A stretch of 64,000 nt of DNA from NCBI GenBank assembly GCA_035506575.1, contig DATJPD010000100.1, forward strand, positions 59,424 through 123,423, written 5' to 3'. The stretch comes from Alphaproteobacteria bacterium (lineage in GTDB: Bacteria; Pseudomonadota; Alphaproteobacteria; CACIAM-22H2). This document shows, in pieces, positions 35,197-48,864 of this stretch. Below the pieces are notes generated by a model. That model was not told the origin of the DNA, searched no databases, and saw only the letters and a program-made list of their open reading frames with translations. The position numbers were made by a program, and so were the translations under genes. Each line of letters opens with the position of its first letter. Within the stretch, counting starts at the first letter, position 1.

Positions 35197-35202
35197 GGCT
35201 TC

Positions 35203-36519
35203 ATGGCTTTCTCGCTCAAGAACTACCTGCCGCACTCGCTGTTCGGGCGCGCGATCCTGATCCTGGTGATGCCGCTCATCATCGTCCAGGGGATCGCCGC
35301 CTTCGTCTTCTACGACCGCGTGTGGGACGTGGTGACGCGGCGCCTCACCACGGCGGTCGCGGGCGAGATCGGCATGGTGGTGCAGCTCCTCGGCCGCTAT
35401 CCCGACCCGGCGACGCGCAACTGGATCTTCGAGACCGTCGCCAACGAAAACGAGCTGCGCTTCAACCTTCGGCCCAACGCCATCCTCAGCAACGACGGAC
35501 CGGTACTCGGCAACGGCATCCTCGAGCAGCGCCTGGTGAACGCGATGAACGAGCGCGTGCGCCGGCCCTTCCGCCTCAACGTGTGGGGCGATCCCGCCGA
35601 CGTGCTCATCGACGTGCAGCTGCCCGAGGGCGTGCTCTACGTGCGCACGCCGCGCGGCCGGCTGTTCACCACCACCTCCTACGTGTTCATCCTGTGGATG
35701 GTGGGCTCGTCGCTGATCATGTTCGCGATCGCGTCCGTCTTCATGCGCAACCAGGTACGGCCGATCCAGCAGCTCGCGACCGCGGCCGAGGAGTTCGGCA
35801 AGGGCCGCGACACGCCGGAGTTCAAGCCCTACGGGGCGGCCGAGGTGCGGCGGGCGGCCGCGGCGTTCGTGATCATGCGCGAGCGCATCCGGCGGTTCGT
35901 CGCGCAACGGACCGAAATGCTGGCCGGCGTCAGCCACGATCTCAGGACGCCGCTCACCCGCATGAAGCTCGAGCTCGCGATGCTCGGCGATTCCCCCTCG
36001 GTCGCCGGGCTCAAGACCGACGTTGGCGACATGGAGCGGATGGTCGAAAGCTACCTCGCCTTCGTGCGCGGCGAGGGCGAGGAGCAGACGGAATCGACCG
36101 ACCTTTCCAAGCTGCTCGAGGACATCGCCGCCAACGCGCGGCGCGACGGGAATTCCGTGTCGCTCACGACGGTGGGCGATCTCGTCCTGCCGCTGCGGCC
36201 GCAGGCGATCAAGCGCAGCCTGACCAACCTCGTCGCCAACGCGACGCGGCACGCGGCCCAGGTGTCGATCGCGGCCGAGCGCCACAACCGCGCGGTCGAG
36301 GTGGTGATCGACGATGACGGCCCCGGCATCCCCGAGCAGGCGCGCGAGGAGGTGTTCAAGCCGTTCTACCGGCTCGATCCCTCGCGCAACCCCGACACCG
36401 GCGGCGTCGGCCTGGGCCTCACCATCGCGCGCGACGTGGTGAGCAGCCACGGCGGCAATATCCAGCTCGACTCGTCGCCGATGGGCGGCCTGCGTGCCCG
36501 CATCCGGCTTCCGGTTTGA
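35203..36519 (+). CDS. EnvZ-like sensor histidine kinase (2 TM, HAMP, HisKA, HATPase_c)
   Basis: H-box VSHDLRTPLTRM and N/G1/G2 boxes; 438 aa. Confidence 0.88.
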   Translation: MAFSLKNYLPHSLFGRAILILVMPLIIVQGIAAFVFYDRVWDVVTRRLTTAVAGEIGMVVQLLGRYPDPATRNWIFETVANENELRFNLRPNAILSNDGPVLGNGILEQRLVNAMNERVRRPFRLNVWGDPADVLIDVQLPEGVLYVRTPRGRLFTTTSYVFILWMVGSSLIMFAIASVFMRNQVRPIQQLATAAEEFGKGRDTPEFKPYGAAEVRRAAAAFVIMRERIRRFVAQRTEMLAGVSHDLRTPLTRMKLELAMLGDSPSVAGLKTDVGDMERMVESYLAFVRGEGEEQTESTDLSKLLEDIAANARRDGNSVSLTTVGDLVLPLRPQAIKRSLTNLVANATRHAAQVSIAAERHNRAVEVVIDDDGPGIPEQAREEVFKPFYRLDPSRNPDTGGVGLGLTIARDVVSSHGGNIQLDSSPMGGLRARIRLPV

Positions 36520-36553
36520 TTTCAGGACTCATCCGTCGTATGAAGCGCCCGTC

Positions 36554-37183
36554 ATGACGTCTTCGCTCGATCTCGACGCGCTGGCCGCCACCGAGCTGCG
36601 CCGGCAACCCTACGACTACGTGGTCGTGCCGAATTTCGTCCGCGCTGCGGCGTTCGAGGAGATCGTCGCCGACTATCCCGAGATCGCGCGCACCGGCTCC
36701 TACCCGCCGTCGGAGCTGCGCTACGGCCGGCGCTTCGCCTCGTTCCTGGCCGAGCTCGAAGGCCCCGGGTTCCGCCACGCGATCGAGCGGAAATTCGGCC
36801 TCAGCCTCGACGGCCGGCCGACCATGATCACGGTGCGCGGCCGCACCGGCGGCGGCGACGGCTATATCCACACCGACACGGCGACCAAGATCATCACCGT
36901 GCTCATCTACTTCAACCGCGGCTGGGAGGCCGACGGCGGCCGGCTGCGCATCCTGCGGGGCCCCAGCGATCTCAACGACTACGCCGAGGAGGTGAGCCCG
37001 TACGGCGGCACGCTCCTCGCCTTCCGCCGCTCCGAGACCTCCTGGCATGGCCACGAAAAGTTCGACGGCCAGCGCCGCGCCATCCAGCTCAACTGGGTCA
37101 CCGACATGAACGTCGTCAACCGCGAGCTGGCGCGCCACCGCGTCTCGGCGTTTTTCAAGAAGCTGAACCCCTTCGCGGCCTGA
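36554..37183 (+). CDS. 2OG-Fe(II) oxygenase superfamily protein
   Basis: YDYVVVPNF N-terminal block and HTD…H metal triad pattern; internal ATG of ORF 36494..37183. Confidence 0.6.
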   Translation: MTSSLDLDALAATELRRQPYDYVVVPNFVRAAAFEEIVADYPEIARTGSYPPSELRYGRRFASFLAELEGPGFRHAIERKFGLSLDGRPTMITVRGRTGGGDGYIHTDTATKIITVLIYFNRGWEADGGRLRILRGPSDLNDYAEEVSPYGGTLLAFRRSETSWHGHEKFDGQRRAIQLNWVTDMNVVNRELARHRVSAFFKKLNPFAA

Positions 37184-37204: not shown

Positions 37205-37399
37205 TCACAGGGCGGCGTGGTCGTGGCCGAGCCGGCCCAGCCCGTGCTCCGCTTCGATGGCCGCTGCCAGCTTGTCGTATTCCTGGGCCACGGCGAGCCG
37301 CACCCGGCGCTTTTCCGCGTCGGCGATCCTGAGGGCCTGTTCTCGCTGACGGTGGGCCTCGGCGCGCAAGGTCGCGGGGGTCGGCAGGCGTTTCGCCAT
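37205..37399 (-). CDS. Hypothetical 64-aa protein
   Basis: AGGAG RBS upstream of the ATG; same strand as, and downstream of, the XRE regulator. Confidence 0.35.
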   Translation of the reverse strand: MAKRLPTPATLRAEAHRQREQALRIADAEKRRVRLAVAQEYDKLAAAIEAEHGLGRLGHDHAAL

Positions 37400-37538: not shown

Positions 37539-37970
37539 TCAGGCGATGACCGCGCCCGCCGGCGCGGCGTACTGCGCCTTGCCCTGGTATTCCCGCGCGA
37601 GGCTCAAAAGGCCGATGCGGATGTCGCGGTTGGCAGGTCTTCGCGCCAGCCAGGCGATGAGCTGGGCCTGGCTCAGGTAGAACTCGCGATCGAAGGCGAA
37701 CGGACGGACGGATGGCTGCACGTACCGGACCACGCCTTCGCCCCCCTCGTCATCGGGGGGCATGAACTGCAGGCCGGCCTGCTCGAACGCCTCGCGGAAC
37801 TGACGGCGGGTGGAGGCGCGGACCGTGTAGCCGCGTTCGAAGCGCACCACGGTCATCCGAATCGCGCCGGCGTGGCGCGCGAGGTCGCTCTGCGTCCACT
37901 CGAGCAGCGCCCGCGCCGCCCGGCACTGGGCCGCCGAAATCAATCCCGTGCGTGCCATCGCCCGCGTCAT
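37539..37970 (-). CDS. XRE-family HTH transcriptional regulator
   Basis: HTH_XRE: ISAAQCRAARALLEWTQSDLARHAGAIRMTVVRFERG; 143 aa. Confidence 0.7.
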   Translation of the reverse strand: MTRAMARTGLISAAQCRAARALLEWTQSDLARHAGAIRMTVVRFERGYTVRASTRRQFREAFEQAGLQFMPPDDEGGEGVVRYVQPSVRPFAFDREFYLSQAQLIAWLARRPANRDIRIGLLSLAREYQGKAQYAAPAGAVIA

Positions 37971-38051
37971 GACCTTACTATTATAAGGTGACTTTGCTGG
38001 ACGAACTCAAGGGCTTCGGTGAGCGGACGAGCCGCCTTGCGCCGGGTGCCA

Positions 38052-39719
38052 TCAGCCGTCGATGACGCTGCGCAGGCGGCCGGCCAGATCGGCGACCGCG
38101 TAGGGCTTCGGCAGGTAGGCCACGTCCGGCGCGGGGTCGGCGCCGGCGGCGACATCGCCCGCAAACCCTGATGTGACCAGGACCTTCAGGCCGGGACGCA
38201 GCTCACGGGCCAGCCGGACCAGCTCGATCCCGCTGATCCCCTCCGGCATGACCACATCGGTGAACAGCACGTCGATCGCCTCGGGACCGCGCAGGATGGT
38301 CAGGGCGAGCGGGCCGTTCGCGGCGTGGAGAACGCGATACCCAAGCTCACCGATGACCTGGATCGCGGAATCGCGGACCAGGTCGTTGTCCTCGACGACC
38401 AGGATCGTCTCGCTCCCGCCGCTGGCCTCGCCCGCGGTCGCCTGACCTGCGGCGGCAGAGGGAGACTCGTGGGTCCGCGCGAGGTACAGGTGGACGCGCG
38501 TCCCCGTGCCGGGGGCGGTGTCGATCGCGACCGCGCCCTGCGCCTGCTTGACGAAGCCGTAGACCTGGCTGAGGCCGAGACCGCTACCCTTGCCGACATC
38601 CTTCGTGGTGAAGAACGGCTCGACGGCCCGCGCGACGATCTCGGGGGCCATGCCCGCCCCCGTATCCGCAACCGTGATGCACACGTACTGCCCCGGTTCC
38701 AGACCGGCCGGGTGCTGCACGCCCGCCGCGGCGGCCGAACCGATGTCGGCGTTGGATGTCCTGATCTCGATCGTGCCTCCCTCGGGCATCGCATCGCGCG
38801 CGTTGACCACCAGGTTGAGGACCGCGGCTTCGAGCTGGCCGGCATCGAGCCAACACGGCCACACGCCGGCGCCGAGCCGGAGCTGCAGTGCCGCGCGCTC
38901 TCCGGCGGCACGACGCAGCAGCGGCTCGAAGCGGTCTATCGCCGCGTTCACCTCCACGGCTTCGAACCGCAGGGGATCGCGGCGCCCGAACGCCAGCATC
39001 TGGTTCGTGAGGTGGCTGCATTCCTGCGTCGCGTTCAGCGCCAGGGTCACGGCCTTCAACAGCTTGTCGCGGCTGCCCGCATCCCATTTGAGGATGCCCC
39101 GCTCCAGTCGTTCGACGGCGCCGACGATGACCGTCAGCAGATTGTTGAAGTCGTGGGCGATGCCGCCGGTGAGGCGCCCCAGCGCGTCGAGCTTCTGGGC
39201 GTGACGCAGCGCCTCCTCGGTCTCGGCGCGCTGGCGCATTTCCTCGACCAGACGTTGGCCCACGTCCGCGATCTCTTGCGTCCGTTCGGCCACCCTCTGC
39301 TCCAGAATCTCGTTCTGCCGGCGCAGATCGAGCTCGGCACGCCGAAGCCGGAACATGGCACGTACGGTGGCGACGAGCTCCTCCGGCTCCATCGGCTCGA
39401 CAAGATACGAATCGGCACCGCCCTCCAGCGCCACGGCGCGATCGTCGGGGCCGGTGAACGCCGCCGATGTCTGCAGCACGAGCACGCTCGGATCGTCCGC
39501 CTTGAGCTGCCGGCAGACTTCGATGCCGCCGATGTCGGGCAGCTTCACATCCAGCAGCACGAGGCCTGGCGTGTCCGCCCGTACGCTGTCAAGCGCTTGG
39601 CCGCCGCGCTCCGCCTCGGCCACCTGGTAGCCGGCGCGCTCGAGCACCCGGCGCTTGAAGTAACGCTGGCCATCGTCGTCGTCGACGACCAGGACGGTTT
39701 CGCGACCGGTGGTGTTCAT
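38052..39719 (-). CDS. Hybrid sensor histidine kinase/response regulator (REC-HisKA-HATPase_c-REC)
   Basis: N-terminal REC (VLVVDDDDGQ), H-box GGIAHDFNNLL, ATPase G-boxes, C-terminal REC (ILVVEDNDLV). Start overlaps the upstream stop by 4 nt. Confidence 0.88.
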   Translation of the reverse strand: MNTTGRETVLVVDDDDGQRYFKRRVLERAGYQVAEAERGGQALDSVRADTPGLVLLDVKLPDIGGIEVCRQLKADDPSVLVLQTSAAFTGPDDRAVALEGGADSYLVEPMEPEELVATVRAMFRLRRAELDLRRQNEILEQRVAERTQEIADVGQRLVEEMRQRAETEEALRHAQKLDALGRLTGGIAHDFNNLLTVIVGAVERLERGILKWDAGSRDKLLKAVTLALNATQECSHLTNQMLAFGRRDPLRFEAVEVNAAIDRFEPLLRRAAGERAALQLRLGAGVWPCWLDAGQLEAAVLNLVVNARDAMPEGGTIEIRTSNADIGSAAAAGVQHPAGLEPGQYVCITVADTGAGMAPEIVARAVEPFFTTKDVGKGSGLGLSQVYGFVKQAQGAVAIDTAPGTGTRVHLYLARTHESPSAAAGQATAGEASGGSETILVVEDNDLVRDSAIQVIGELGYRVLHAANGPLALTILRGPEAIDVLFTDVVMPEGISGIELVRLARELRPGLKVLVTSGFAGDVAAGADPAPDVAYLPKPYAVADLAGRLRSVIDG

Positions 39720-41845
39720 GGCGCCGGCGGCGGGTGCGGCTGCAGCGCCTCGCGGATGGCCCCTACCAGCCGGTCCGCCGTCAGGTCGAACTTCGACAAG
39801 ATGCCGGATGCGTGCGCGACCCGTTCCTTCTGCGCCTCGTCGAGTACCAGCGAGGTCAGGATGATGGCCGGCGGCGCTCCCGCCCCTTCCCCGTTGTGCA
39901 GGCGGTCGAGGAACTCGAAGCCGTCGACCATGTCCATGTTCAGGTCGAGGAGGATGACGTCGGGTGGGTCCGCCTTCGCCTGCTCGAGCCCGTCGATCGC
40001 GTTGGCGGCCTCGCGAAGCTCGTAGGCGCCGCGCGGCAGCAGCTGGCGGACCACGTAGCGCGAGACCTCCTCGTCGTCGACCAGCAGCACCTTGGTCATG
40101 CCACGGGCGCCGGTCATCTCATCGAGCCACCGCACGAGGCCCGCCGGGTCGACTGGCTTGACCATGAATTCGTCGGCGCCGAAGCTGCGCGCCTTCTGCT
40201 CATCGGCGGTACTCGAGACGAGGACCGCCGGAACGTCCTGCGTCCGCTCATCGTGCTTCGCGTCGATCAAGAAGCGCCAGCATTCCTCGCCCTGGAGCAC
40301 GATATCGAGGACGAAGGCGGCCGGCGTGATCCGCTCCAACGCGCGTTTTGCCTCGGCGACGCTGCGGACGGAAATCGGCTGATAACGCGAGTACGCCAGC
40401 GAGCGCTCGAGGCTGAACGCGTCGGCGGGATCGTCTTCGAGGATCAGCACCGGCAACCGGCCCGGCTCGACCGTCCACGAGCCCTCGTCCGGCGCGCCGG
40501 CCAGCTCGCAGTAACGGCGCGGAATCCTGACCCAGAACAGCGAGCCCTGGCCCACGACGCTCTCGACCCCGGCCTCGCCGCCCAAAAGCTCGGCGAGGCG
40601 CTTGGACAGCGGCAGGCCGAGCCCCGTGCCCTTCACCCGTCCCTGGAGCCGGTTCGCGACCTGCGTGAATTCCTGCCAGATCCGGTCGAGGTCGGCCGCG
40701 GCGATCCCGACGCCCGTGTCGCGGACGTTCCAGGTCACCGTGTCGGTCTCGCGGTCGTAGACTGCCCACACGCGGACCTCGCCGCGCTCGGTGAACTTGA
40801 TCGCGTTGGAGATGAAGTTGCGCAGGATCTGCGAGACCTTGCCCTCGTCGGTGAAGAGGGTCGGGATATCGTCGGGGTCGTCGAACACGAGGTTGAGGGC
40901 GTTGCCGACCAGGAGCGGACGCAGCATGCCGCGCAAGGTGCTGAACAGCTCGCCGGCCTCGAATTCCTTCGACGTCACGACGACCTTGCCCGCCTCGACG
41001 CGCGCGATGTCGAGGAGGTTGTCGACCAGCTCCGCCAGGCTCTCCGCCGCCTTGCGCACGAACAGCACCTGCTTTTCCTGCTCGGGCGTCAGCTCCCCGT
41101 CGGTGCGGCCGAGCAGGAGACGGGACAGCGACAGGATCGAGTTCAACGGCGTGCGGAACTCGTGGCTCATGTTCGAGAGAAACCGCGACTTGAGCTGGTC
41201 GGCGCGGCGCAGATGGTCGGCGCGCTCCTCGAGCTCGGCGTAGAGGGCCACGACCCCGCGGTTCGTGTCCTGCAGCTCGTCGTTCAGCTGCGCGAGCTCC
41301 TGCTGACGCGCCTGAAGCTCCTGCAGCTGCAGCATCATCTCGCGGTTCTGGTTGCGGATCTCGGCCACGGGGTCGCCGCTCTCCGCCGTCGCCAGCGCCT
41401 GCATGATCGGCTTCAGCTGGTCCTTGTAGATCGCGGGCGCCCGCTTCGGCAGGCATTTCACCATTCGCACCGTCGTGCCCTGGCCGCGGTGGCTCTGCAG
41501 CTCGAACTCGTCCATCAGCCGCCGGGCGCCAAGGATTCCGACGCCCATGCCGGTCGTCGAGCGGTGGCGCCCGGACAGGACCGCTTCCGGGTCGGCCATG
41601 CCCGGGCCGGAATCCTGGACCACGATTTCGAGGCACTGCGGATCCCGGCCCGTGATCTTGTATTCGATGCGGCCGCCGCCGCCGTAATCGAGCGCGTTGC
41701 GCACGATCTCCGACACGGCGGTCGTGATACGCGTCTGATCCTGCGCATCGAACCCCAGAAGTGCCGCGATCTGGCGCGTGCGCTGGCGGGCGGCGATGAT
41801 GTCCGTCTCGCGCTCGATGGCCACGGTGAGGAGCCGTGCGTCCAC
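39716..41845 (-). CDS. RsbT-like GHKL domain::HisKA::HATPase_c::REC::REC hybrid kinase
   Basis: N-terminal 130 aa align with B. subtilis RsbT (DIIAARQ..TRITTAVSEIVRNAL..GQGTTVRMVKCL). Then H-box SHEFRTPLNS, ATPase and two receivers. Confidence 0.85.
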   Translation of the reverse strand: MDARLLTVAIERETDIIAARQRTRQIAALLGFDAQDQTRITTAVSEIVRNALDYGGGGRIEYKITGRDPQCLEIVVQDSGPGMADPEAVLSGRHRSTTGMGVGILGARRLMDEFELQSHRGQGTTVRMVKCLPKRAPAIYKDQLKPIMQALATAESGDPVAEIRNQNREMMLQLQELQARQQELAQLNDELQDTNRGVVALYAELEERADHLRRADQLKSRFLSNMSHEFRTPLNSILSLSRLLLGRTDGELTPEQEKQVLFVRKAAESLAELVDNLLDIARVEAGKVVVTSKEFEAGELFSTLRGMLRPLLVGNALNLVFDDPDDIPTLFTDEGKVSQILRNFISNAIKFTERGEVRVWAVYDRETDTVTWNVRDTGVGIAAADLDRIWQEFTQVANRLQGRVKGTGLGLPLSKRLAELLGGEAGVESVVGQGSLFWVRIPRRYCELAGAPDEGSWTVEPGRLPVLILEDDPADAFSLERSLAYSRYQPISVRSVAEAKRALERITPAAFVLDIVLQGEECWRFLIDAKHDERTQDVPAVLVSSTADEQKARSFGADEFMVKPVDPAGLVRWLDEMTGARGMTKVLLVDDEEVSRYVVRQLLPRGAYELREAANAIDGLEQAKADPPDVILLDLNMDMVDGFEFLDRLHNGEGAGAPPAIILTSLVLDEAQKERVAHASGILSKFDLTADRLVGAIREALQPHPPPAP

Positions 41846-41848
41846 CGG

Positions 41849-42835
41849 TCAGACCCTCAGGGCTACGACGGTCGCGTCGTCGTTCTTGCGCCGGAAGTCG
41901 CGGAATAGGATTCCGGCGATCAGGCTGGGATGGCTCGCCGCGAGGCCCGGGTAGGCCGTGAAATCCCACTTCGCGGACAGCCCGTCCGAGTGCATGATGA
42001 CGACGGATCCGTCCGCCCAGGGGTAGCTGAACTCGCGGATGCGCAGGGCCACGTGTCCCACCGTGCCGTTGTGCGACACCATCCGCCGGACGCTGCCGGC
42101 GGGCGCCACGATCGCGCCCGCGATATTGCCCACGCCCGCGAACCGGACCACCCGCGCCTCCCCATTCACGCGGGCAATGGCGATGGCGGCCCCTCGCGTC
42201 GGGGCGAGCTCCCGGTGCATCCGGGCCAGGATCTCCGTGCAGTCCTCGTCGGCGCAATTCTCGAACGTCCGCAGCGCCGCCTGGGTGGCCGCGCCTGCCG
42301 CCGGACCATGACCGGAGCCGTCGGCGACCATCAGGGTCGCGCCTTTGGTCGACCTCGCGAACGCCCAGCCGTCGCCGCTGACGCGCTCTCCATGCAACGG
42401 CATGGCGATCGCGCCGAGAACGGGAGTGCCGTCGATCTTGGAATGACGGCCATTGCCGATGCGCGCGGCGATCGCGGTGCCGAGGTTGGGGCGAGTGAAC
42501 ACGTTGAGCTGATCAGCCTGGCGGCGGATCGCGCCGAGGCCATTGCCCGGGCTGCCGGCGGTCGACACCCCGTCTTCGAACGCGCGCCCGAGATCGGCGA
42601 TCCCTTCGCCCTTGTCCAGAGCGAGGAGCTCGATACCGCTGCCCGAGGCGTCGGCGTAGGTGCCGATGACGATCTCGCCGCGCGAAGCATGCTTGATGAG
42701 ATTGGTGGCAAGCTCGGTTGCGACCAGGGCGACCCGGCCGGTGCTCTTCTCGTCGAACCCGCGCGCCTCTGCCGCGTCCGCGGCGGCGCGGCGCGCCACC
42801 GAAACCTGGCTGGAATCCGCGACCTCGATGAGCAT
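41849..42835 (-). CDS. RsbT/RsbW-like ATPase domain fused to PP2C (SpoIIE-type) phosphatase
   Basis: N-terminal VATELATNLIKHA...NGLGAIRRQADQLN (HATPase_c_2-like). C-terminal PP2C with metal-binding Asp motifs MVADGSGHG and IMHSDGL. Confidence 0.8.
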   Translation of the reverse strand: MLIEVADSSQVSVARRAAADAAEARGFDEKSTGRVALVATELATNLIKHASRGEIVIGTYADASGSGIELLALDKGEGIADLGRAFEDGVSTAGSPGNGLGAIRRQADQLNVFTRPNLGTAIAARIGNGRHSKIDGTPVLGAIAMPLHGERVSGDGWAFARSTKGATLMVADGSGHGPAAGAATQAALRTFENCADEDCTEILARMHRELAPTRGAAIAIARVNGEARVVRFAGVGNIAGAIVAPAGSVRRMVSHNGTVGHVALRIREFSYPWADGSVVIMHSDGLSAKWDFTAYPGLAASHPSLIAGILFRDFRRKNDDATVVALRV

Positions 42836-42847
42836 GCCGGCGCCGCC

Positions 42848-43270
42848 TCACTTCCAGCGGATCAGGGTGACGGTGGTGCCTTCGCCGGGGGTCGACTTGA
42901 TGTCGAACTCGTTGGACAGGCGCTTGGAGCCGCTGAGGCCGAGGCCCAGGCCGCCTCTGGTGGTGTAGCCGTCCGTCATGGCCCGCGCGATATCGGGGAT
43001 TCCGGGCCCCTTGTCGGTAAAGACCAGCCTGAGCCCCACGCGCCCGCCCTGCCGTACGGTATCCATGTCCATCCTGCCGCCGCCGCCATGCAAGATCGTG
43101 TTGCGGCCGATCTCGCTCGCAGCCGTGACGATCTTCGTCTGATCGACGAGGCTGAACCCAAGGGCCACGGCTTGCGCCCGAACCTTCTGCCGGACCTTGA
43201 CCACGTCCTCGGACGTACTGACCGATATTGTGTCACTCGCCTCGACGATCAAGCGACCCCTCCTCGCCAT
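42848..43270 (-). CDS. rsbT: RsbT-type serine kinase (stressosome partner)
   Basis: Aligns along its length with B. subtilis RsbT (TAASEIGRNTILHGGGG...GPGI...GGLGLGLSGSKRL...PGEGTTVTL). Start uncertain (ATG 43270 overlaps rsbS; alternative TTG 43252). Confidence 0.85.
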   Translation of the reverse strand: MARRGRLIVEASDTISVSTSEDVVKVRQKVRAQAVALGFSLVDQTKIVTAASEIGRNTILHGGGGRMDMDTVRQGGRVGLRLVFTDKGPGIPDIARAMTDGYTTRGGLGLGLSGSKRLSNEFDIKSTPGEGTTVTLIRWK

Positions 43271-43622
43271 CGATCATCTGGCGAATCAGGGCGAGCCCCT
43301 TGTCGACGTTGAGCGCGGTCTTCACGCCGGTCAGGGACAGGCCGAGCTCGACCAGGGTGATGGCGACCGCCGGCCGCATGCCGACGACCACCGTGACCGC
43401 GTCGAGAATGCGCGACATCGCCGCGATGTTGTTCAACATGCGGCCGATGAAGGAGTCGACGATCTCAAGAGAGGAGATGTCGATCATCACGCCGCGGGCG
43501 CGGGTCTCCACGATCTTCGCTGTCAGGTCGTCCTGCAGCGCCAACGCCAGCCGGTCGTGCATGTCGACCTGGATGCTGACCAGGAGCGTGTCGCCGATCT
43601 TCAGGATCGGGATCTGGTCCAT
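43233..43622 (-). CDS. rsbS: RsbS-type STAS-domain protein (stressosome scaffold)
   Basis: IPILKIGDTLLVSIQ...VMIDISSLEIVDSFIG...AITLVELG, including the DSF phosphorylatable-Ser context; 129 aa. Confidence 0.88.
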   Translation of the reverse strand: MDQIPILKIGDTLLVSIQVDMHDRLALALQDDLTAKIVETRARGVMIDISSLEIVDSFIGRMLNNIAAMSRILDAVTVVVGMRPAVAITLVELGLSLTGVKTALNVDKGLALIRQMIDGEEGSLDRRGE

Positions 43623-43628
43623 GGCGGT

Positions 43629-44519
43629 TTAAGCCTCTTCCGCCGCTGCCGCGTCCTGCGGCTTTTTCTTTTCGCCGTTCGACTGCTCGCGGTCCCTGAC
43701 CGTCTTGCCGATCCGCCGCAAGGCCAGCGCGAAGGCATCCGCCATCGTGGCCTTGGTCATGACGTTGAGCTCGACGCCGAGATGCACGATGGTTTGCGCG
43801 ATCTGCGGCCTGATACCGCTGATGATGCAGTCGGCCCCCATCAGACGCGCAGCGGACACGGTCTTCAGCAGGTGCTGCGCCACGAGCGTGTCGACTGTCG
43901 GCACGCCGGTGATGTCGATGATCGCGGTCTCGGCGCCCGAGGTGACGATCTGCTGCAAAAGGCTCTCCATCACGACCTGGGTGCGGGCGCTGTCCAAGGT
44001 GCCGATCAGCGGCAGGGCCAGGATGCCGTCCCACAGCTTCACCACGGGGGTCGACAGCTCCAGCATCTCCTCCTGCTGGCGCGCGATCACCTCTTCGCGG
44101 TTCTTCTGGAACACCTCGGTCGTGTAGAGGCCGAGCTTGTCGAGCAGCAGGGTTGCCGTCCAAATCTCGCGCGCAAGCGTCGGCGCGTCCTTGATTTCGC
44201 GCCCGAGCAGGGAGAACAGCGGAGATTTCAGCGAGAACACGAACGTCGCGGTCTGCGCCGGCGTGGCGCCCTTGATCGCACGCTCGCGCGAGAGCTCTTC
44301 GAGGATTCCGCGCGCCGGGGCCCAGGCTGGGCCGCTGATGTCATCGAACTGCCCCGAGGCGATGCCTTGCCGCAGTGCCGTGAAGAACCGCGCGCCGACT
44401 TCGTTGAGATCGTCGCCGACCGCAATCGTGACCGCCGATATCTGCGCAGCCCAGTCCTTCATCACCTGGGTGCTGTATTTGTCCAGGATCTGCGGGATGA
44501 TGCTGTCGGTCTTGGTCAT
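43629..44519 (-). CDS. rsbR: RsbR-type stressosome sensor (N-terminal non-haem-globin-like domain + C-terminal STAS)
   Basis: C-terminal STAS aligns with RsbRA (IIDITGVPTVDTLVAQHLL...GADCIISGIRPQIAQT), conserving both phosphorylatable Thr positions; 296 aa. Confidence 0.85.
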   Translation of the reverse strand: MTKTDSIIPQILDKYSTQVMKDWAAQISAVTIAVGDDLNEVGARFFTALRQGIASGQFDDISGPAWAPARGILEELSRERAIKGATPAQTATFVFSLKSPLFSLLGREIKDAPTLAREIWTATLLLDKLGLYTTEVFQKNREEVIARQQEEMLELSTPVVKLWDGILALPLIGTLDSARTQVVMESLLQQIVTSGAETAIIDITGVPTVDTLVAQHLLKTVSAARLMGADCIISGIRPQIAQTIVHLGVELNVMTKATMADAFALALRRIGKTVRDREQSNGEKKKPQDAAAAEEA

Positions 44520-44754
44520 CTTTTTCCCTCATTTTCTTTTCCAAGCGCGAGCGGCCCGCCACGCGGGTCACTCTCGCATGGACGGTCACGGAGATTGCGT
44601 CAGGTAGATGACGCCCAAAGCGGTCTTTTTGAGTTATTCCGAGCTGCCGGCCGCGCGATCGGTTGTTTCGCGTACACGCCTGGATTATTTAACCAACACG
44701 ATATCGAAAACACGAATCGTTTTACTGATCCAGGCAGGACTTGGGGAGCGTGCC

Positions 44755-45129
44755 ATGGCGAACAACGGGCCGACATCTGAGAAAGGACGGATCCTGCTCG
44801 TCGATGACGAGGACGGGTTCCGCTACACGGCCGAGAAGGCGCTGCGCGAGGCCGGCTATGACGTGAGGATCGCCGGCGATTATCAGAAGGCGCTCGACAT
44901 CCTCGCCGGGCCCGAGCGTCTCGACCTGATGCTGACCGACATCGTGATGCCCAAGGGCATCAACGGCTTTGCCCTGGCGCGCATGGCACGCATGCGCCGG
45001 CTCGACCTGAAGTTGCTCTACGTCACGTCGTACGACGTGCCCGCAAACGAAGCGGTCGCCAAGATCCTGCGCAAGCCGATCACCGAGACCGAGCTGGTGC
45101 ACGAGGTCGAGCAGGCGCTGGCGGCTTAG
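44755..45129 (+). CDS. Single-domain response regulator (receiver only)
   Basis: 124 aa with ILLVDDEDG...DLMLTDIVMP; divergent from rsbR. Internal ATG of ORF 44608..45129. Confidence 0.75.
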   Translation: MANNGPTSEKGRILLVDDEDGFRYTAEKALREAGYDVRIAGDYQKALDILAGPERLDLMLTDIVMPKGINGFALARMARMRRLDLKLLYVTSYDVPANEAVAKILRKPITETELVHEVEQALAA

Positions 45130-45170
45130 CTTGGGCCCAGTAAGGGGGGCGTTTCATCGCGTGGTGCGGG

Positions 45171-47291
45171 TCAGGCCGATGCTTCGGCCGGCGCCGTCAC
45201 TGCACCGATATCGCTGCGCCGCAGCCGCTGTCGCGGCAAATGCACCGTCATCCGGGTGCCGACATCCGGCGTACTGACGATCTCGAGTCTTCCCCCGTGC
45301 AGCTCGACCAGACGCTTGGCCAGCGGCAGTCCCAGCCCGGTGCCCTGCTGGCCGCGGCTGAAGGTGAGATTCGCCTGCCCGAACGGTTGCACCGCGGTTT
45401 CGATTTGCCCCGGGGTCATGCCGATTCCGGTGTCATGAACCACAAGCGCCAGCTCGCCGGATTCCTCGACGCCTGCGCTCAGCGACACCCGCCCGCCCGC
45501 TGGCGTGAACTTGATGGCATTCGACAGGAGATTGGTCAGGATCTGGCGTATCCGCAGGGGATCCGCCCACAGGTCCGGAAGGCTGACCGGAACGTCGATG
45601 CTCAGGAACAGATTTTTCTTGCCGGCCTCGCCGCGCAGGATGTTTACGGTTGAGGCGACCAGATCAGCCACGATGCACGACTGCTCGCGGAGTTGAAGCT
45701 TGGCCGCATCGAGCTTCGACAAATCGAGAATGTCGTTCACGATCTCCAGCAGATGGCGGCCCGCGCCGTTGATGTCGGCGGCATACTCGCGATAGCGCGC
45801 GGTGCCGACAGGCCCCAGGACCTCGCCGCGGATGATCTCGGAAAACCCGATCACGGCATTGAGCGGCGTCCGCAGCTCGTGACTCATGTTCGCAAGGAAC
45901 GCCGATTTTGCCTGGCTCCCGGCCTCGGCGGCGGCCTTCGCCCGCTCCAAGGCGGCCTCGATCTGCTTGCGCGCGGTGATGTCGCGCGAGTTGATCACGA
46001 TGCCCCCGACACCCGGGACGTCGAACGCATTGCGGGCCGTCCACCCGATGTCGCGCCACGTGCCGTCCACGTGCCGTACCCGCGCGCACCCGCTCGCACG
46101 GCGCCCCGGCCCGGCGGCAACGCCGCGCAGCGCATCGGCGAGCCCGGCCTTGTCCTCGGGATGTATGCGCTCCGACAACGGACGCCCGACGACCTCCTCC
46201 GGAGGAACTCCGAGCACCTCGATAGAAGAAGGACTGCGATAGGTCACCATGCCCTGCGGGTCGACGACGGTGATCATGTCGTTGGACTGCTCGATGAGCG
46301 CGCGGAACCGGCGCTCGCTGGTCTTGACGGCCGCCTCCGCCGCCTCGCGCCGGGCCTCCTGCCCCACCAGATAGGCGGCGAAAGCGGCGATGATGGCGGC
46401 GCAGGCGAGAAAGATCGCGCCTAGAACGCGGAGATCGCGCTTCCACGGGGCGAGCACGTCATCGACGGCGCGCGAGACGTAGACGACCAAGCCGAGGCTT
46501 GGGATCGCCCGATAGGAGACGATGCGATCGATCCCATCGATGATCGTGCTGGTCCGGTACGTTCCGACGGGGGTCTGCGGCAGGTAATGCGTCAGAAGCG
46601 GACCTTTCGCCAGCGACGCTCCGATGGCACCGCCCTTTGGCTGCCGCATGAGGATCGGCCCGTCGATTCGAACGACGCCGACCACCGCATTCTCGCCGAC
46701 CTGAAGCGATCGGAAGAAGTCGTGGAATGTGTTCAACGGGAGCGTCGCCACTATGACGCCGGCAAAGCTGCCGTCCGCCGCCACGAGACGCCGGCTCGCC
46801 GGGATGAGCCACTCGCCGGATGCCCGGCCGACGATCGGCATGCCGATGAAAAGACCTGCTTGCGAGTTTTTCCGATGCGCGTCGAAATAATCGCGATCGC
46901 TTAGATCGACCCCTACCGGTCCGGTCGCGAAGGTGGAATAGGTCATCCGGCCGGTCGGATCGATCAATCCCAGACTTCTCACGTGATACGTGTCGATGGC
47001 CCGCGACGAAATCTCGCCACCGTCCGGCCCCGTGCCGCCAGCGCGCGGCGCCTCGGCCAGGCGCTCCCCCGTGGTCACGAGCGCATGGTCGACCGCGTCG
47101 AATACGGAACGCGTATGCTCGTCGAGCGCAAGCGCGAGCCGCGCGTTCAGATCGCTGCCGTTCGTCAGATAAGCCCGGTATTCGATCAGCAGATGCGCAC
47201 CGAAGCCCAGGGCGAGAGCGAAAATCGCGAGCGCTGCGAACGCGATCAAACCGGGGCGGCTGCGGATGGTGGCGGACGTCATGTGACCCAT
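45171..47291 (-). CDS. Sensor histidine kinase with periplasmic Cache-like domain, PAS, HisKA, HATPase_c
   Basis: TM, ~270-aa periplasmic domain, second TM, PAS (ITVVDPQGMVTYRSP), H-box SHELRTPLNAV, G-boxes. Start is MGHM 47291 (or 47282). Confidence 0.85.
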   Translation of the reverse strand: MGHMTSATIRSRPGLIAFAALAIFALALGFGAHLLIEYRAYLTNGSDLNARLALALDEHTRSVFDAVDHALVTTGERLAEAPRAGGTGPDGGEISSRAIDTYHVRSLGLIDPTGRMTYSTFATGPVGVDLSDRDYFDAHRKNSQAGLFIGMPIVGRASGEWLIPASRRLVAADGSFAGVIVATLPLNTFHDFFRSLQVGENAVVGVVRIDGPILMRQPKGGAIGASLAKGPLLTHYLPQTPVGTYRTSTIIDGIDRIVSYRAIPSLGLVVYVSRAVDDVLAPWKRDLRVLGAIFLACAAIIAAFAAYLVGQEARREAAEAAVKTSERRFRALIEQSNDMITVVDPQGMVTYRSPSSIEVLGVPPEEVVGRPLSERIHPEDKAGLADALRGVAAGPGRRASGCARVRHVDGTWRDIGWTARNAFDVPGVGGIVINSRDITARKQIEAALERAKAAAEAGSQAKSAFLANMSHELRTPLNAVIGFSEIIRGEVLGPVGTARYREYAADINGAGRHLLEIVNDILDLSKLDAAKLQLREQSCIVADLVASTVNILRGEAGKKNLFLSIDVPVSLPDLWADPLRIRQILTNLLSNAIKFTPAGGRVSLSAGVEESGELALVVHDTGIGMTPGQIETAVQPFGQANLTFSRGQQGTGLGLPLAKRLVELHGGRLEIVSTPDVGTRMTVHLPRQRLRRSDIGAVTAPAEASA

Positions 47292-47592
47292 CAATTCGCG
47301 TCCCCGAGATCGGATCAAAAAGCGCCTGTGCCGCAGTGGAACCCACGAGAGCCCGCAGACGGCGCGCCGCGCCGATGGGGCGCGGCGGCATCGCACGGAC
47401 CTCTGCGTGACAGGACGCTCGTTGGCGACTCTGCGGACGAGTAAGCCGCAGTCTTCGTGGTGTCGCCGATCCGTCCACTAACGGGACGTGAGCCAAACGC
47501 CGCTTATGCAGCAGACTCTAAATATATGGAGTGGTTGTTAATAGAACGTTGACAAAGGCTTAACGGCGCGATGCGGGCCCTGTGCGTGGAGA

Positions 47593-48864
47593 TCACGTAC
47601 TGCCGAGCGGCATCAGCAGCTCGCGCTTCAACTCGCCCAGCGCGTTGATGCCCAGCAGCGCCATGTCGCGGTTGATCTCCTGCGACAGGATGCCCGCGGC
47701 GTGCTCGACGCCGGCCTGCCCGGCGATCGAAGCCGCGAACAGGAACGGCCGGCCGACGAACACGAAGCGGGCGCCGAGCGCCAGCGCCTTCAGCACGTCG
47801 GTGCCGCGGCGCACGCCGCTGTCGAACATCACGGTCATGGGCCCGGCCAAATCGGCGATCTCCGGCAGGACGCGCAAGGGGGATACCGTGCCGTCGAGCT
47901 GCCGGCCGCCGTGGTTGGAGACGAGCACGCCGTCCACTCCGCTGTCGCGCGCGATGCGTGCGTCCTCCTTGTTCATCACCCCTTTGAGCGCCAGCTTTCC
48001 CTGCCAGCGCTTGCGGATCAGCTCGAGATGGCGCCAGTTCAGGTGGTCGCGCATGCCGAAATCGCGCGCCACGGCGCGCGACAGGATCGGCGCGCCGCGG
48101 GTCGCGTAGGAGTTCTCGAAATACGGCATGCCGTGCCGCACCAGCGTGCGGAACCACGTATTGATCAGCCAGTCTGGACGGATGAGGCCGTCCCAGGCCA
48201 GGCGCAGGCTGGGCTTGAGTGGCGTGGTGAAGCCGTTGCGGATGTTGTTCTCGCGGTTGGCCGACACCGGCACGTCGATGGTCACGACCAGGGTCTTGAA
48301 TCCGGCCGCGGCCACCCGGTCCACGAGGCCCAGGATGCGCGCATCCTCGCCCGGCAGATAGGCCTGGAACCAGGAGTCCGGATTTTCGCGGATCACGTCC
48401 TCGAGCCGGATCAGCGACGATCCGCTGAGGATGAACGGGATGTTGCAGCGCGCGGCGGCCCGCGCAAGAACGAGGTCTGCACGATATGCCGCGATCGCAG
48501 CGATGCCCATCGGCGGGATGCCGAACGGTGCCGCGTAACGCTGGCCGAACAACTCGGTCGCCTGGCCGCGCTTGGACGTATCGACGAGGCCGCGCGGCAC
48601 GAAGCCGTAGTCCTGGAAGGCCGCGCGGTTGTCGCGCCACGTTGCGTTCGTCTCCGCCGCCCCGGCGACGAAGCCGAAGATCGGCCGCGGGAGATGCCGC
48701 CTGGCGGCGACCTCGAAATCGTCGAGCGACAGGATGCGCCGGAGCTTGCGCGGGCCGGCGCTGGGCAGGCCCTGCAGCATGGCTCCGCCCGTGACAGGCG
48801 CCACGGCCGGGGCGACCGGAGCGTCGGGCACGGCCCTGGCGGTCGAGCTCATCTCATTGGGCAT
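47593..48864 (-). CDS. FMN-dependent alpha-hydroxy acid dehydrogenase (L-lactate dehydrogenase/LldD family)
   Basis: TIM-barrel FMN motifs (LSNHGGRQLDG, GRPFLF); 423 aa with a GAGAGGAA RBS. Confidence 0.8.
   Translation of the reverse strand: MPNEMSSTARAVPDAPVAPAVAPVTGGAMLQGLPSAGPRKLRRILSLDDFEVAARRHLPRPIFGFVAGAAETNATWRDNRAAFQDYGFVPRGLVDTSKRGQATELFGQRYAAPFGIPPMGIAAIAAYRADLVLARAAARCNIPFILSGSSLIRLEDVIRENPDSWFQAYLPGEDARILGLVDRVAAAGFKTLVVTIDVPVSANRENNIRNGFTTPLKPSLRLAWDGLIRPDWLINTWFRTLVRHGMPYFENSYATRGAPILSRAVARDFGMRDHLNWRHLELIRKRWQGKLALKGVMNKEDARIARDSGVDGVLVSNHGGRQLDGTVSPLRVLPEIADLAGPMTVMFDSGVRRGTDVLKALALGARFVFVGRPFLFAASIAGQAGVEHAAGILSQEINRDMALLGINALGELKRELLMPLGST

Follow-up and report, generated by a model that had tools for sequence, protein, structure and literature searches.

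The interval 37539-47291 of the window (the whole stretch of alphaproteobacterial DNA analysed here, 64,000 nucleotides) raises the question of where a stress signal goes when no obvious output is encoded beside its sensors. The first-pass annotation had described one signalling island with a stressosome, three histidine kinases and six receiver domains. The kinases are evident: 38052-39719, 39716-41845 and 45171-47291 all encode HisKA and HATPase_c domains (Pfam), and the H-box histidine is retained in each. So is the stressosome, of which Pfam recognizes RsbR, RsbS, RsbT and a PP2C protein. The conserved unit is a six-gene operon on the minus strand (38052-44519) with the order rsbR, rsbS, rsbT, X, D1, D2, together with a divergent lone receiver gene (44755-45129). 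The first four genes of the operon are:

43629-44519, minus strand: rsbR, stressosome co-antagonist (Pfam RsbRD_N sensor domain, 1.1e-19; C-terminal STAS, 1.4e-14)
43233-43622, minus strand: rsbS, single-STAS antagonist (Pfam STAS, 3.1e-07)
42848-43270, minus strand: rsbT, stand-alone RsbT-type serine kinase (Pfam HATPase_c, 4.2e-11; HATPase_c_2, 1.8e-08)
41849-42835, minus strand: X, an RsbT-like kinase domain (42470-42820; Pfam HATPase_c_2, 1.1e-12) joined to a PP2C domain (41852-42400; Pfam SpoIIE, 1.8e-13)

RsbR, the product of the first gene of the conserved operon, contains two candidate phospho-threonines, T174 (GTLD) and T211 (VDTL), and Ser57 of RsbS lies in a VDSF motif at the position matching the phosphorylated serine of RsbS. 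RsbS is 65-74% identical to its counterpart in most proteobacterial, cyanobacterial, myxobacterial and acidobacterial loci. RsbT has all of the N, G1 and G2 boxes and matches SpoIIAB in NCBIfam (2.9e-14). The N-terminal domain of X shares 31% identity with RsbT (E 2e-19), and the best solved relatives of its PP2C part are 3zt9 (5.9e-14), which is labelled SpoIIE in the database and which we take to be the MtX structure, and RsbX 3w40 (1.1e-12). By these matches the phosphatase appears to be of the RsbX/MtX type, and X is probably the reset phosphatase, docked on the stressosome through its RsbT-like domain. RsbU_N has no match in any ORF (Pfam, E<=0.01 on whole proteins and E<=10 on linkers). 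The remaining genes of the conserved unit and their domains are:

39716-41845, minus strand: D1, a hybrid histidine kinase with an RsbT paralogue (Pfam; HATPase_c, E 9e-40)
41456-41803, minus strand: D1 N-terminal RsbT paralogue domain, followed by a coiled-coil linker
40988-41191, minus strand: D1 HisKA, His228 (Pfam)
40517-40849, minus strand: D1 HATPase_c (Pfam)
40100-40480, minus strand: D1 receiver 1 (receiver HMM, six-frame translation)
39731-40111, minus strand: D1 receiver 2 (receiver HMM, six-frame translation)
38052-39719, minus strand: D2, receiver-HisKA-HATPase_c-receiver, 555 aa (Pfam; HATPase_c, E 8e-18)
39339-39719, minus strand: D2 input receiver with Asp57 and Glu108, without the conserved lysine (receiver HMM), followed by a coiled coil
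38976-39182, minus strand: D2 HisKA, His189 (Pfam)
38478-38846, minus strand: D2 HATPase_c (Pfam)
38055-38429, minus strand: D2 C-terminal receiver (receiver HMM, six-frame translation)
44755-45129, plus strand: lone single-domain response regulator, divergent from rsbR (Pfam Response_reg, 2.2e-13; receiver HMM match in six-frame translation at 44755-45126)

Both X and D1 open with an RsbT paralogue. The D1 paralogue shares 37% identity with RsbT (E 8e-31), and a comparison with solved structures matches it to SpoIIAB. With the N-terminal 215 aa of D1 as query, 428 clusters (50% identity) are retrieved at E<=1e-30, most of them proteins 590-720 aa long. Rather than marking a gap in the pathway, PP2C and the three RsbT-like kinase domains supply the enzymatic parts of a partner-switching layer. 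Packing within the operon is tight, the ATG of D2 overlapping the stop codon of D1 (ATGA) and the remaining gaps being 3-12 nt. In D2, the otherwise invariant receiver lysine is missing from the input receiver (K-to-E).

The same arrangement is found far beyond this genome. R-S-T-X-D1 with a receiver-first gene behind it is the order found in 49 of the 59 genome loci and in 9 metagenome loci (about 58 loci), drawn from Alpha-, Beta- and Gammaproteobacteria, Myxococcota, Cyanobacteria, Acidobacteriota, Armatimonadota and Clostridium; the fusion of an RsbT-like domain to PP2C seen in X is common to 58 related loci. Because gene order is conserved across phyla, the clustering of the operon genes is not due to chance. 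Depending on the locus, D1 has 1-2 receivers and D2 may or may not have a C-terminal one; the D2 input receiver is constant. All 11 Pfam-annotated D2 homologues are receiver-first, ten with the architecture receiver-(PAS/GAF)-HisKA-HATPase, in some followed by a C-terminal receiver, and one (L001) with a 210-aa stand-alone receiver followed by a HisKA-HATPase kinase. Where D2 lacks the C-terminal receiver (L010, L029 and L045), a free receiver is found beside the module. Six related alphaproteobacterial loci (L060, L061, L062, L064, L065 and L066) have the lone receiver in the same divergent position, as do two of Acidobacteria (L029 and L045), and in the host's alphaproteobacterial clade it too is part of the module. 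A stressosome wired to two histidine kinases in series, with a bare receiver at the end, is a widespread class of bacterial stress-sensing operon, known though little studied.

A search of the whole window, translated in six frames, with a receiver HMM places five receivers in the interval, not the six first counted. The only other match (34495-34869) falls outside it, in an OmpR-type regulator ORF (34486-35196) that carries a Trans_reg_C output domain. The receivers had also been described as unfused to any output domain. This is correct for DNA-binding and c-di-GMP domains: at both Pfam thresholds given above, the receiver-bearing ORFs of the interval contain no Hpt, GGDEF, EAL, HD-GYP, RsbU_N or DNA-binding domain, so that the profile search named as a possible refutation found no Hpt or classical effector. 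It does not apply to the N-terminal receiver of D2, which sits in the input position and whose own output domain is the HisKA-HATPase kinase. Each of the examined loci has a bare receiver, whether fused or free, as the last element of the chain, and no conserved effector regulator is present among the neighbours, which differ between lineages. The absence of an obviously encoded output, which had been noted for this locus, is real and is the rule for the whole family, not a peculiarity of the host genome.

The domain architecture, intact catalytic motifs, tight packing, cross-phylum gene order and effector-less terminal receiver are all directly observed. They are best explained by a conserved module that leads from the stressosome to D1 and from D1 to D2, an explanation that, with its mechanistic steps included, we hold to be somewhat better than an even bet. 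RsbR and RsbS would form a STAS scaffold with RsbT bound to it. As the paralogy of their N-domains suggests, X and D1 would dock on the same scaffold through these RsbT-like domains, which would take the place of the RsbU_N adaptor of Bacillus. Phosphorylation of RsbS and RsbR upon stress would alter this docking and switch the D1 kinase via its coiled-coil linker. D1 could then transfer phosphate directly from His to Asp onto the D2 input receiver, its own receivers serving as sinks or regulators, and D2 would pass phosphate to its own C-terminal receiver and to the lone receiver. The latter, which has the full set of catalytic residues and is 37% identical to the C-terminal receiver of D2, is proposed to be the terminal phospho-acceptor of the cascade and would work via protein contacts, as a single-domain regulator. 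Dephosphorylation of the STAS proteins by X would reset the system. Ordinary phosphotransfer from D1 to D2 is uncertain, given that the D2 input receiver has no conserved lysine.

The operon could instead be the upstream part of a multi-step phosphorelay, in which the C-terminal receivers of D1 and D2, or the lone receiver, donate phosphate via an unlinked Hpt/ChpT-like protein to a distant DNA-binding or c-di-GMP regulator. This was also the suggestion of the first-pass annotation, and we regard it as possible but rather unlikely. Both kinases are hybrids with intact receiver aspartates, and the D2 core scores 406 bits against PRK13557 and 361 bits against Brucella CckA, both NCBIfam matches below cut-off. 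The CckA receiver signals through ChpT, a hybrid architecture of this kind usually signals through an Hpt protein, and the 64 kb inspected are only part of a genome. The solved structures nearest to the lone receiver are receivers of hybrid kinases, and in NCBIfam it matches CpdR (68.7 bits). However, all of these NCBIfam scores are far below the equivalog cut-offs, and neither the interval ORFs nor the 10 unannotated ORFs scanned in the window gave an Hpt or HPTransfase match; nor did the annotated flanking regions (up to 10 kb per side) of 10 related loci. Moreover, the gene after D1 is always receiver-first, a sign that at least the initial step is a direct His-to-Asp transfer inside the operon.

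The lysine position bears on a different alternative, that the D2 input receiver is a pseudo-receiver which, instead of being phosphorylated on Asp, mediates docking or dimerisation or is a target of the RsbT-like serine kinases, so that D1 and D2 would be coupled by binding and not by His-to-Asp transfer. In 36 of the 37 D2 homologues the equivalent of CheY K109 is E or Q, and in 36 of the 37 the CheY T87 position is serine. Among the 120 closest database homologues of this receiver, about 90 have E, A, Q, H, N, S or T in place of the lysine, which is back only in ordinary NarL/OmpR regulators. Yet all 37 retain the phospho-acceptor Asp and the three acidic residues of the pocket, and the switch Tyr/Phe is kept. 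An intact Asp pocket is unusual among receivers that gave up phosphorylation, and we consider the pseudo-receiver unlikely, both as an account of the domain and as an account of the coupling.

A transcriptional output next to the cascade had also been considered, in the form of the small protein encoded downstream of D2. The genes concerned are:

37539-37970, minus strand: XRE-type helix-turn-helix protein, 143 aa (AlphaFold2 fold, Foldseek, sub-threshold HTH_3)
37205-37399, minus strand: small helical ORF of about 64 aa, downstream of the XRE gene (ORF list)

Although its HTH_3 score is below the Pfam cut-off (15.8 bits vs 23), homologues of the XRE protein carry PF01381, and its AlphaFold2 model (mean pLDDT 81.5) has a Cro/C1 helix-turn-helix fold that Foldseek matches to C.Kpn2I, HipB and 434 Cro over about 52-75 residues. 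Judged by this predicted fold, it is a genuine helix-turn-helix protein, and its C-terminus, modelled as a beta-hairpin and a helical hairpin, is subclade-specific. Full-length homologues form only about 15 clusters and are seen only beside D2. The gene lies 81 nt downstream of D2 and directly follows D2 in six loci with DNA (L061, L066, L067/L068 and L069/L070), from three genomic contexts and regardless of which genes lie beyond it; in a seventh contig it stands behind a truncated, unannotated upstream ORF. Homologues of the small ORF, of 59-65 aa, come after it in L066, L067 and L069. The XRE gene is absent from relatives with a 61-64% identical D1 and from every beta-, gamma-, myxo-, cyano- and acidobacterial locus that keeps the operon. 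The first-pass annotation was right to see in it a candidate regulator, but confined to a narrow subclade it cannot be the general output; it is an accessory gene and a candidate local transcriptional output or autoregulator. Its narrow family, private C-terminal domain and constant place after D2 could be explained if, within the subclade, the phosphorylated lone receiver or D2 bound the C-terminal helical domain and altered DNA binding. We think this improbable: besides its patchy occurrence, the protein contains no receiver or other known phospho-acceptor domain, a TATAAT-like box in the 81-nt gap suggests a promoter of its own, and an autoregulator or an unrelated passenger gene is equally possible.

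The third kinase does not belong to the conserved module:

45171-47291, minus strand: membrane dCache-PAS-HisKA-HATPase_c kinase, 706 aa from Met36 (Pfam; HATPase_c, E 3e-27)

Window positions 45130-47604 give way to 143 bp (a 2.5-kb indel) in L061, a collinear relative with a 90% identical first kinase, and the dCache-PAS kinase gene is also missing from the relatives with a 61-64% identical D1. It is a separate gene, recently gained or lost at strain level, and the single signalling island originally described is not upheld. That all three kinases form one network, in which this kinase is cognate to the lone receiver and feeds an extracellular signal in, is very unlikely: it has no adjacent regulator of its own, its stop codon is 42 nt from that of the lone receiver, both genes have a lower GC3 (0.80 for the kinase, 0.79-0.80 with the lone receiver) than the operon (0.87-0.92) and the two are adjacent in L066 as well, but they are convergent and therefore not co-transcribed, the lone receiver is kept without the kinase beside it in L061, L060, L062, L064 and L065, and in Acidobacteria free receivers accompany the operon without such a kinase.

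The module of stressosome, D1 and D2 can be compared with several known systems. As in CckA-ChpT-CtrA/CpdR signalling of Alphaproteobacteria, the D2 core consists of HisKA with an HDFNN H-box, HATPase_c and a receiver, with CckA as best NCBIfam match, and CpdR is the best match of the lone receiver; on the other hand, the scores fall far short of the equivalog cut-offs (361 vs 1000 and 68.7 vs 180), D2 is devoid of PAS and transmembrane sensor parts, and the window contains no ChpT. With RsbRST-RsbU-RsbV-RsbW-SigB-RsbX of Bacillus subtilis the module shares the RsbR/RsbS STAS scaffold, an RsbX-type feedback phosphatase, an RsbT with intact ATP-binding boxes, the conserved RsbS serine and the RsbR threonines. 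It differs from it in having no RsbU_N adaptor, RsbV/RsbW pair or sigma factor (within the 64-kb window), a histidine-kinase cascade as output, and two extra RsbT paralogues fused to X and D1.

HsbR of Pseudomonas aeruginosa combines an RsbW/RsbT-like kinase, PP2C and a receiver in one polypeptide and has a STAS-protein target. SypE of Vibrio fischeri likewise has an RsbW-like kinase, a receiver and PP2C (PMC12826045). X resembles both in uniting an RsbW/RsbT-like serine kinase and PP2C that would act on a STAS protein, and in all of them partner switching is linked to two-component signalling. In SypE and HsbR, however, a receiver controls both activities, whereas X has none, and the two-component part precedes the partner switch, whereas here, as the domain order suggests, it follows. 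Myxococcus RedCDEF is another receiver-first kinase-to-kinase cascade. In CheA3/CheS3 of Rhodospirillum centenum, as proposed here, a hybrid kinase feeds a second kinase via an N-terminal input receiver (PMC3868531). Bare receivers serve as end points or sinks in CheA3/CheS3-type cascades, as in the host module, but for their input these cascades and RedCDEF rely on chemotaxis-like or other sensors and not on a stressosome. We know of no input receiver in cascades of these two types that lacks the conserved lysine.

Our literature search found no study of the RSTX-D1-D2 architecture and no biochemical data on any member with D1 and D2, though stressosomes with downstream two-component modules are known. 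Another stressosome with a non-sigma output is MtR-MtS-MtT-MtX-MtG of Moorella thermoacetica, where, as cited in PMC4976288, the RsbT homologue phosphorylates a diguanylate cyclase that serves as output; relative to that account, the present locus differs in having no GGDEF domain. A further likeness is the Vibrio vulnificus locus rsbR-rsbS-rsbT-rsbX with VvD1 and VvD2 (PMC9237108, PMC10014275), in which RSTX is also followed directly by two presumed-output two-component proteins, and SigB, RsbU, RsbV and RsbW are absent from both. In V. vulnificus, an interaction of RsbT with the downstream kinase could not be shown (PMC9237108). The RsbR sensor there is a globin and here RsbRD_N; RsbX is described as a single-domain PP2C and here carries an added RsbT-like N-domain. 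VvD1 is described with a PAS domain, in an account that mentions no RsbT-like N-domain, and VvD2 is predicted to act on c-di-GMP, whereas D2 is a receiver-kinase-receiver protein.

Genes in the window, whose G+C content is about 69%, were picked by third-position G+C together with domain matches. Seven genes lie on the minus strand from 44519 to 37539, in the transcription order rsbR, rsbS, rsbT, X (a PP2C fusion protein), D1 and D2 (the two operon kinases) and the gene of a 143-aa protein, with domains assigned by Pfam. These genes, their neighbors and two flanking features are located as follows.

34486-36519, flank: OmpR-type regulator and HAMP kinase
37539-37970, minus strand: 143-aa protein (XRE), after an 81-nt gap following D2
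38052-39719, minus strand: D2, 555 aa; receiver, HisKA, HATPase_c, receiver (Pfam)
39716-41845, minus strand: D1, 709 aa; HATPase_c_2, HisKA, HATPase_c, two receivers (Pfam)
41849-42835, minus strand: X, 328 aa; N-terminal HATPase_c_2 and SpoIIE-type PP2C, 1.8e-13 (Pfam)
42848-43270, minus strand: rsbT; HATPase_c_2 and HATPase_c (Pfam)
43233-43622, minus strand: rsbS; STAS, 3.1e-07 (Pfam)
43629-44519, minus strand: rsbR; RsbRD_N, 1.1e-19, and STAS, 1.4e-14 (Pfam)
44755-45129, plus strand: lone single-domain receiver, 124 aa, divergent from rsbR
45171-47291, minus strand: dCache-PAS-HisKA-HATPase_c membrane kinase, convergent with the lone receiver
48943-50715, flank: further dCache kinase

The first six genes of the operon are tightly packed, with gaps of 3-12 nt, an overlap between rsbS and rsbT, and the ATG of D2 lying over the stop codon of D1 as ATGA. 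RsbR has its sensor domain at the N-terminus and its STAS domain at the C-terminus, with the candidate phospho-threonines T174 (GTLD) and T211 (VDTL). RsbS is a single STAS domain with a phosphorylatable-type Ser57 within VDSF, and in RsbT, encoded after rsbS, the ExxxN, DxGxG and GxGxG motifs (N, G1 and G2 boxes) can be seen in the sequence. Together with X, encoded directly after rsbT, these proteins make up an RSTX module at the gene level. H-box histidines are found in D1 (His228), in D2 (His189) and in the third kinase, the dCache-PAS kinase. By residues and Pfam matches, the hybrid kinases combine HisKA and HATPase_c with a receiver that has an acidic pocket and a phospho-Asp. The three histidine kinases and the stressosome genes of the first-pass annotation are therefore real: their E-values are strong, and the residues named above (H-box histidines, RsbS serine, RsbR threonines) are in place. 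A receiver HMM, built from the window's own receivers and E. coli CheY and applied to the six-frame translation of the window, found exactly five receivers in the interval 37539-47291, where six had been counted; the sixth belongs to an OmpR regulator (34495-34869) outside the interval and is accompanied by a DNA-binding domain. D12, D13, D57 and T/S87 (CheY numbering) are kept by all five receivers.

Hpt, GGDEF, EAL, HD-GYP, RsbU_N and DNA-binding domains are absent from the receiver-bearing proteins at Pfam E≤0.01, and at Pfam E≤10 the linkers and unassigned segments, all of which were scanned, yielded no Hpt and nothing beyond HisKA and coiled-coil noise. The unassigned stretches, of 88 aa ahead of the HisKA domain in D1 and of about 60 aa within D2, are mostly coiled-coil-like and too short to hold the four-helix bundle of an Hpt. 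Ten more unannotated ORFs in the window match unrelated families or nothing, with no Hpt among them. A hidden Hpt or output domain is thus excluded by the searches of the linkers at E≤10 and of these ten ORFs, and the earlier expectation that these ORFs contain neither an Hpt nor an effector domain has withstood a sensitive profile search. As for an output of the Bacillus SigB type, no RsbU_N, additional STAS/anti-sigma pair or sigma factor was found with Pfam in window 30918-52953. The claim that no receiver is joined to an output domain holds for DNA-binding and c-di-GMP effectors but fails for the N-terminal (input) receiver of D2, which does have an output domain, namely the kinase.

The absence of an effector is shared by many genomes. 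Using D1 as the query against species-representative genomes yielded 59 loci, which span Beta- and Gammaproteobacteria (Janthinobacterium, Pseudoduganella, Ramlibacter, Cellvibrio), Myxococcota (Archangium), Cyanobacteria (Scytonema), Acidobacteriota (Paracidobacterium), Armatimonadota, Gemmatimonadota, Clostridium and others. An X-type phosphatase is encoded beside the D1 homolog in 49 of the 59 genome loci and in nine metagenome loci, and most X-bearing loci have the full R-S-T-X-D1 order followed by a gene whose leading receiver shares 44-61% identity with the input receiver of D2. In alphaproteobacterial relatives the unit consists of the divergent lone receiver and rsbR-rsbS-rsbT-X-D1-D2. 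Ten of the 11 Pfam-annotated genes downstream of D1 encode receiver-(PAS or GAF)-HisKA-HATPase_c proteins with or without a C-terminal receiver, and no DNA-binding or c-di-GMP domain was found among the 11. The eleventh, at locus L001 of an uncultured bacterium (12149-12781), encodes an extra stand-alone D2-type receiver of 210 aa, located between D1 and a full D2-type kinase gene. In other phyla the genes flanking the module differ completely from lineage to lineage, and no effector regulator is conserved among them; a conserved neighboring effector gene was rejected, since the neighbors encode a metallophosphatase, hemerythrin, flavohaemoglobin, Kelch protein, glyoxalase or unrelated HAMP kinase. 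When the N-terminal 215 residues of D1 were searched against a library of 1.84 billion representatives, 428 clusters (50% identity) were matched at E≤1e-30 and 2706 at E≤1e-10, and the best matches are mostly proteins of 590-720 aa aligned at their very N-terminus. As judged from these matches, the D1 family is large and coherent. The interpretation of the missing output is thus right in part: no effector is encoded, but this is an arrangement conserved throughout a large family that itself falls in a known class.

The dCache-PAS kinase had been counted with the operon as one signaling island. In the close relative L061, whose D1 is 90% identical, the DNA is collinear with about 29.8-52.6 kb of the window at 87-92% nucleotide identity, and window 45130-47604 (2.5 kb, including the whole dCache-PAS kinase) corresponds to 143 bp. 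The kinase is present in L066 (D1 95% identical), and the genes beside the lone receiver are unrelated in four loci with 61-64% identical D1 (L060, L062, L064 and L065). Its GC3 is 0.80, versus 0.87-0.92 in the operon. These comparisons of related loci identify the dCache-PAS kinase as a strain-level indel adjoining the module and no part of it; its membership is ruled out by the indel in L061 and by its absence from the other relatives. Apart from the receiver count and this treatment of the interval as one unit, the original observation was largely right.

The flanks also hold a MarR regulator, a 2OG oxygenase and an FMN dehydrogenase. The order MarR, OmpR-type regulator, HAMP histidine kinase and 2OG-Fe(II) oxygenase (window 33924-37183) is the same in L061, L066 and the contig encoding P0277, a relative's protein. 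Counting the dCache kinase at 48943-50715, five histidine kinases lie within 16 kb of window sequence. Between this dCache kinase and the FMN dehydrogenase, L061 has an ECF sigma factor, a ChrR-like (Cupin_7) anti-sigma factor and a 73-aa ORF (3701-5345); only 74 bp are found at this site in the window (48868-48941). A lone Cupin_7 ORF with no adjacent sigma factor is located at window 52954-53358.

The 143-aa protein had been put forward as the sole candidate transcriptional output. Its HTH_3 score of 15.8 bits is below the Pfam cut-off of 23 bits. Residues 12-64 of its AlphaFold2 model (mean pLDDT 81.5) match C.Kpn2I, HipB and 434 Cro at an rmsd of 0.8-2.8 Å, and its N-terminal half aligns with PF01381-annotated proteins; by predicted fold and alignment it fits an XRE HTH protein, although HTH_3 is sub-threshold. 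Residues 70-143 (window 37539-37749, minus strand) are predicted with good confidence to form a beta-hairpin and a helical hairpin, and a structure search with the model found no solved structure matching the protein beyond its HTH part. Full-length homologs fall into only about 15 clusters. A homolog directly follows D2 in L061, L066, L067/L068 and L069/L070, that is, in all such loci with DNA, and the adjacency holds even with other genes further downstream (GT87 and MscL in place of the 2OG oxygenase); in one further contig the ORF upstream of XRE is unannotated and truncated where the contig stops, and D2 can only be presumed to be the adjacent gene. The XRE gene is absent from the 61-64% identical D1 relatives and from all other phyla. 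A family-wide output role was rejected because the protein occurs in a narrow subclade only; the gene is a linked accessory of this subclade, and its product is a plausible local regulator.

Just upstream of the XRE start there is an AT-rich imperfect palindrome, CCTTATAATAGTAAGG (about 37973-37990, minus strand), which includes a TATAAT box. It may serve as promoter or operator; a conserved operator was rejected because the palindrome is retained only in the two closest relatives. Next after the XRE gene comes a small helical ORF of about 64 aa (37205-37399, minus strand), and weakly similar ORFs of 59-65 aa follow the XRE homologs in L066, L067 and L069. On the P0277 contig (genes 1833-5378), the XRE gene and two small ORFs are immediately followed by a gene for an 1181-aa protein, GAF-HisKA-HATPase_c-receiver-HisKA-HATPase_c-receiver, with two kinase-receiver units in a single polypeptide.

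RsbT-like domains are found at the N-termini of both D1 and X. The D1 domain is 37% identical to the operon's RsbT (E 8e-31) and the X domain 31% identical (E 2e-19), and the ATP-binding boxes are kept in all three. Among solved structures, SpoIIAB is the only match of the D1 domain. The structures closest to the phosphatase domain of X are entry 3zt9, which we take to be the Moorella stressosome phosphatase MtX, and then B. subtilis RsbX (3w40). The N-terminal region of a histidine kinase is its input. Since this is the position of the RsbT-like domain in D1, and since RsbU_N is absent, we infer from paralogy and domain order that the domain would couple D1 to the RsbR/RsbS scaffold; in X, it would bring the reset phosphatase to its STAS substrates.

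Downstream of D1, the signal would pass to the input receiver of D2 by direct His-to-Asp transfer. Direct transfer is suggested by the position of this receiver, invariably right after D1, by the variability of the other receivers and by the start/stop overlap of the two genes. In related loci D1 has one or two receivers, and the C-terminal receiver of D2 is optional. The D2 input receiver (39339-39719, minus strand) has Glu108 (YLVEP) at the position of CheY Lys109, at the end of beta-5, which appears as a K-to-E change in the alignment to MtrA. The receiver lysine, which contacts the phosphoryl group, is one of the residues best conserved in receivers; the four other receivers keep it. E or Q occupies this position in 36 of 37 non-identical D2 homologs across phyla, with lysine only in a Clostridium protein. 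Among the best 120 database homologs of the D2 input receiver, the residue is E in 62, A in 16, Q in 7 and H, N, S or T in 5; lysine is found only in the 17 most distant of the 120, which are ordinary NarL- or OmpR-type regulators. The Asp pocket is invariant in the homologs of the D2 input receiver, which form a lysine-less subfamily (E, A, Q and others) with the pocket retained. As far as sequence can tell, this subfamily may have an unusual phosphorylation chemistry, and the glutamate lowers our confidence in a simple D1-to-D2 transfer. In locus L064 (a Stellaceae MAG), the D2 C-terminal receiver (13466-13780) is out of frame with the rest of D2, which could reflect a frameshift or a misassembly; in the near-identical L065, D2 is intact at 554 aa.

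The lone receiver would be the terminal acceptor of D2. Where D2 is without a C-terminal receiver (L010, L029 and L045), a free receiver is encoded directly after D2 or divergently from rsbR; Janthinobacterium and Archangium have D2 with a fused receiver and no free one, and in the clade of the window both forms occur together. The lone receiver shares 37% identity with the C-terminal receiver of D2, and the solved structures nearest to it are hybrid-kinase receivers. The main rival explanation is that it passes the phosphate to an unlinked Hpt protein. No Hpt or ChpT, of which a relay of the ArcB/BarA/TorS or the CckA-ChpT type would need one, was found in the other scanned window ORFs or in the annotated flanks of relatives. 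The known equivalogs are not matched at their NCBIfam cut-offs either, with D2 at 361 bits against 1000 for CckA and the lone receiver at 68.7 bits against 180 for CpdR. We prefer the reading in which the lone receiver, as terminal acceptor of D2, would act as a single-domain regulator over an Hpt relay. A stress promoter shared by the lone receiver gene and rsbR was ruled out because the intergenic region between them, aligned from five loci, has no conserved motif; no convincing GGAAC-N16-17-CGTT box was seen by eye, a sigma-70 scan was empty and a terminator scan gave weak matches.

The locus bears on two questions (PMC9237108): the targets of Gram-negative stressosomes, and the route from RsbT to downstream proteins without the RsbU_N adaptor. 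The domain layout suggests testable answers: RsbT-like domains in the phosphatase and the first kinase, an unusual receiver gating D2 and a bare receiver as end point. On the most far-reaching reading, the RsbT paralogs fused to the phosphatase and to the first kinase would physically connect Gram-negative stressosomes with their two-component outputs, a link long sought, with D1 as a stressosome client; the lysine-less D2 receiver would belong to a non-canonical class with altered or absent Asp phosphorylation, possibly under the control of RsbT-like serine kinases; and a hybrid Ser/Thr-His-Asp cascade would end in a bare receiver. We consider this complete scheme improbable as it stands. The family occurs in cultured genera, among them Janthinobacterium, Pseudoduganella, Archangium, Paracidobacterium and Scytonema, which makes the wiring testable. 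For annotation, the missing output should be read as a conserved design rather than as the mark of an incomplete or odd locus, and the neighboring dCache kinase should be kept apart from the module. What gives the locus its value is the wiring hypothesis and the lysine-less receiver, rather than the missing output domain itself.

According to citations in PMC10014275 and PMC3360785, a 2005 survey by Pane-Farre and colleagues listed stressosome modules that have two-component proteins encoded after them. Outside that survey, which lay beyond our search, the literature searched contained no study of this architecture and nothing relevant on RsbT-like fusions to histidine kinases. SypE combines an RsbW-like kinase with PP2C and includes a receiver (PMC12826045); X, unlike SypE and HsbR, has the kinase-like and PP2C domains without a receiver. 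D2 is receiver-first, as in the kinase-to-kinase cascades of R. centenum Che3 (PMC3868531). In Vibrio vulnificus, rsbRSTX is followed by VvD1 and VvD2, the latter predicted to control c-di-GMP (PMC9237108, PMC10014275), and an interaction between RsbT and VvD1 could not be demonstrated (PMC9237108). This RSTX-D1-D2 arrangement is the same kind of system as the window locus, where Pfam found neither a globin RsbR nor a c-di-GMP regulator downstream. The sensor of RsbR is a globin in Vibrio and RsbRD_N in the window, and the c-di-GMP output regulator of Vibrio is replaced by a second kinase, D2, with no HD-GYP, EAL or GGDEF domain. The window locus further differs from the Vibrio type in the RsbT-like domains carried by X and D1 and in its receiver-only end point.
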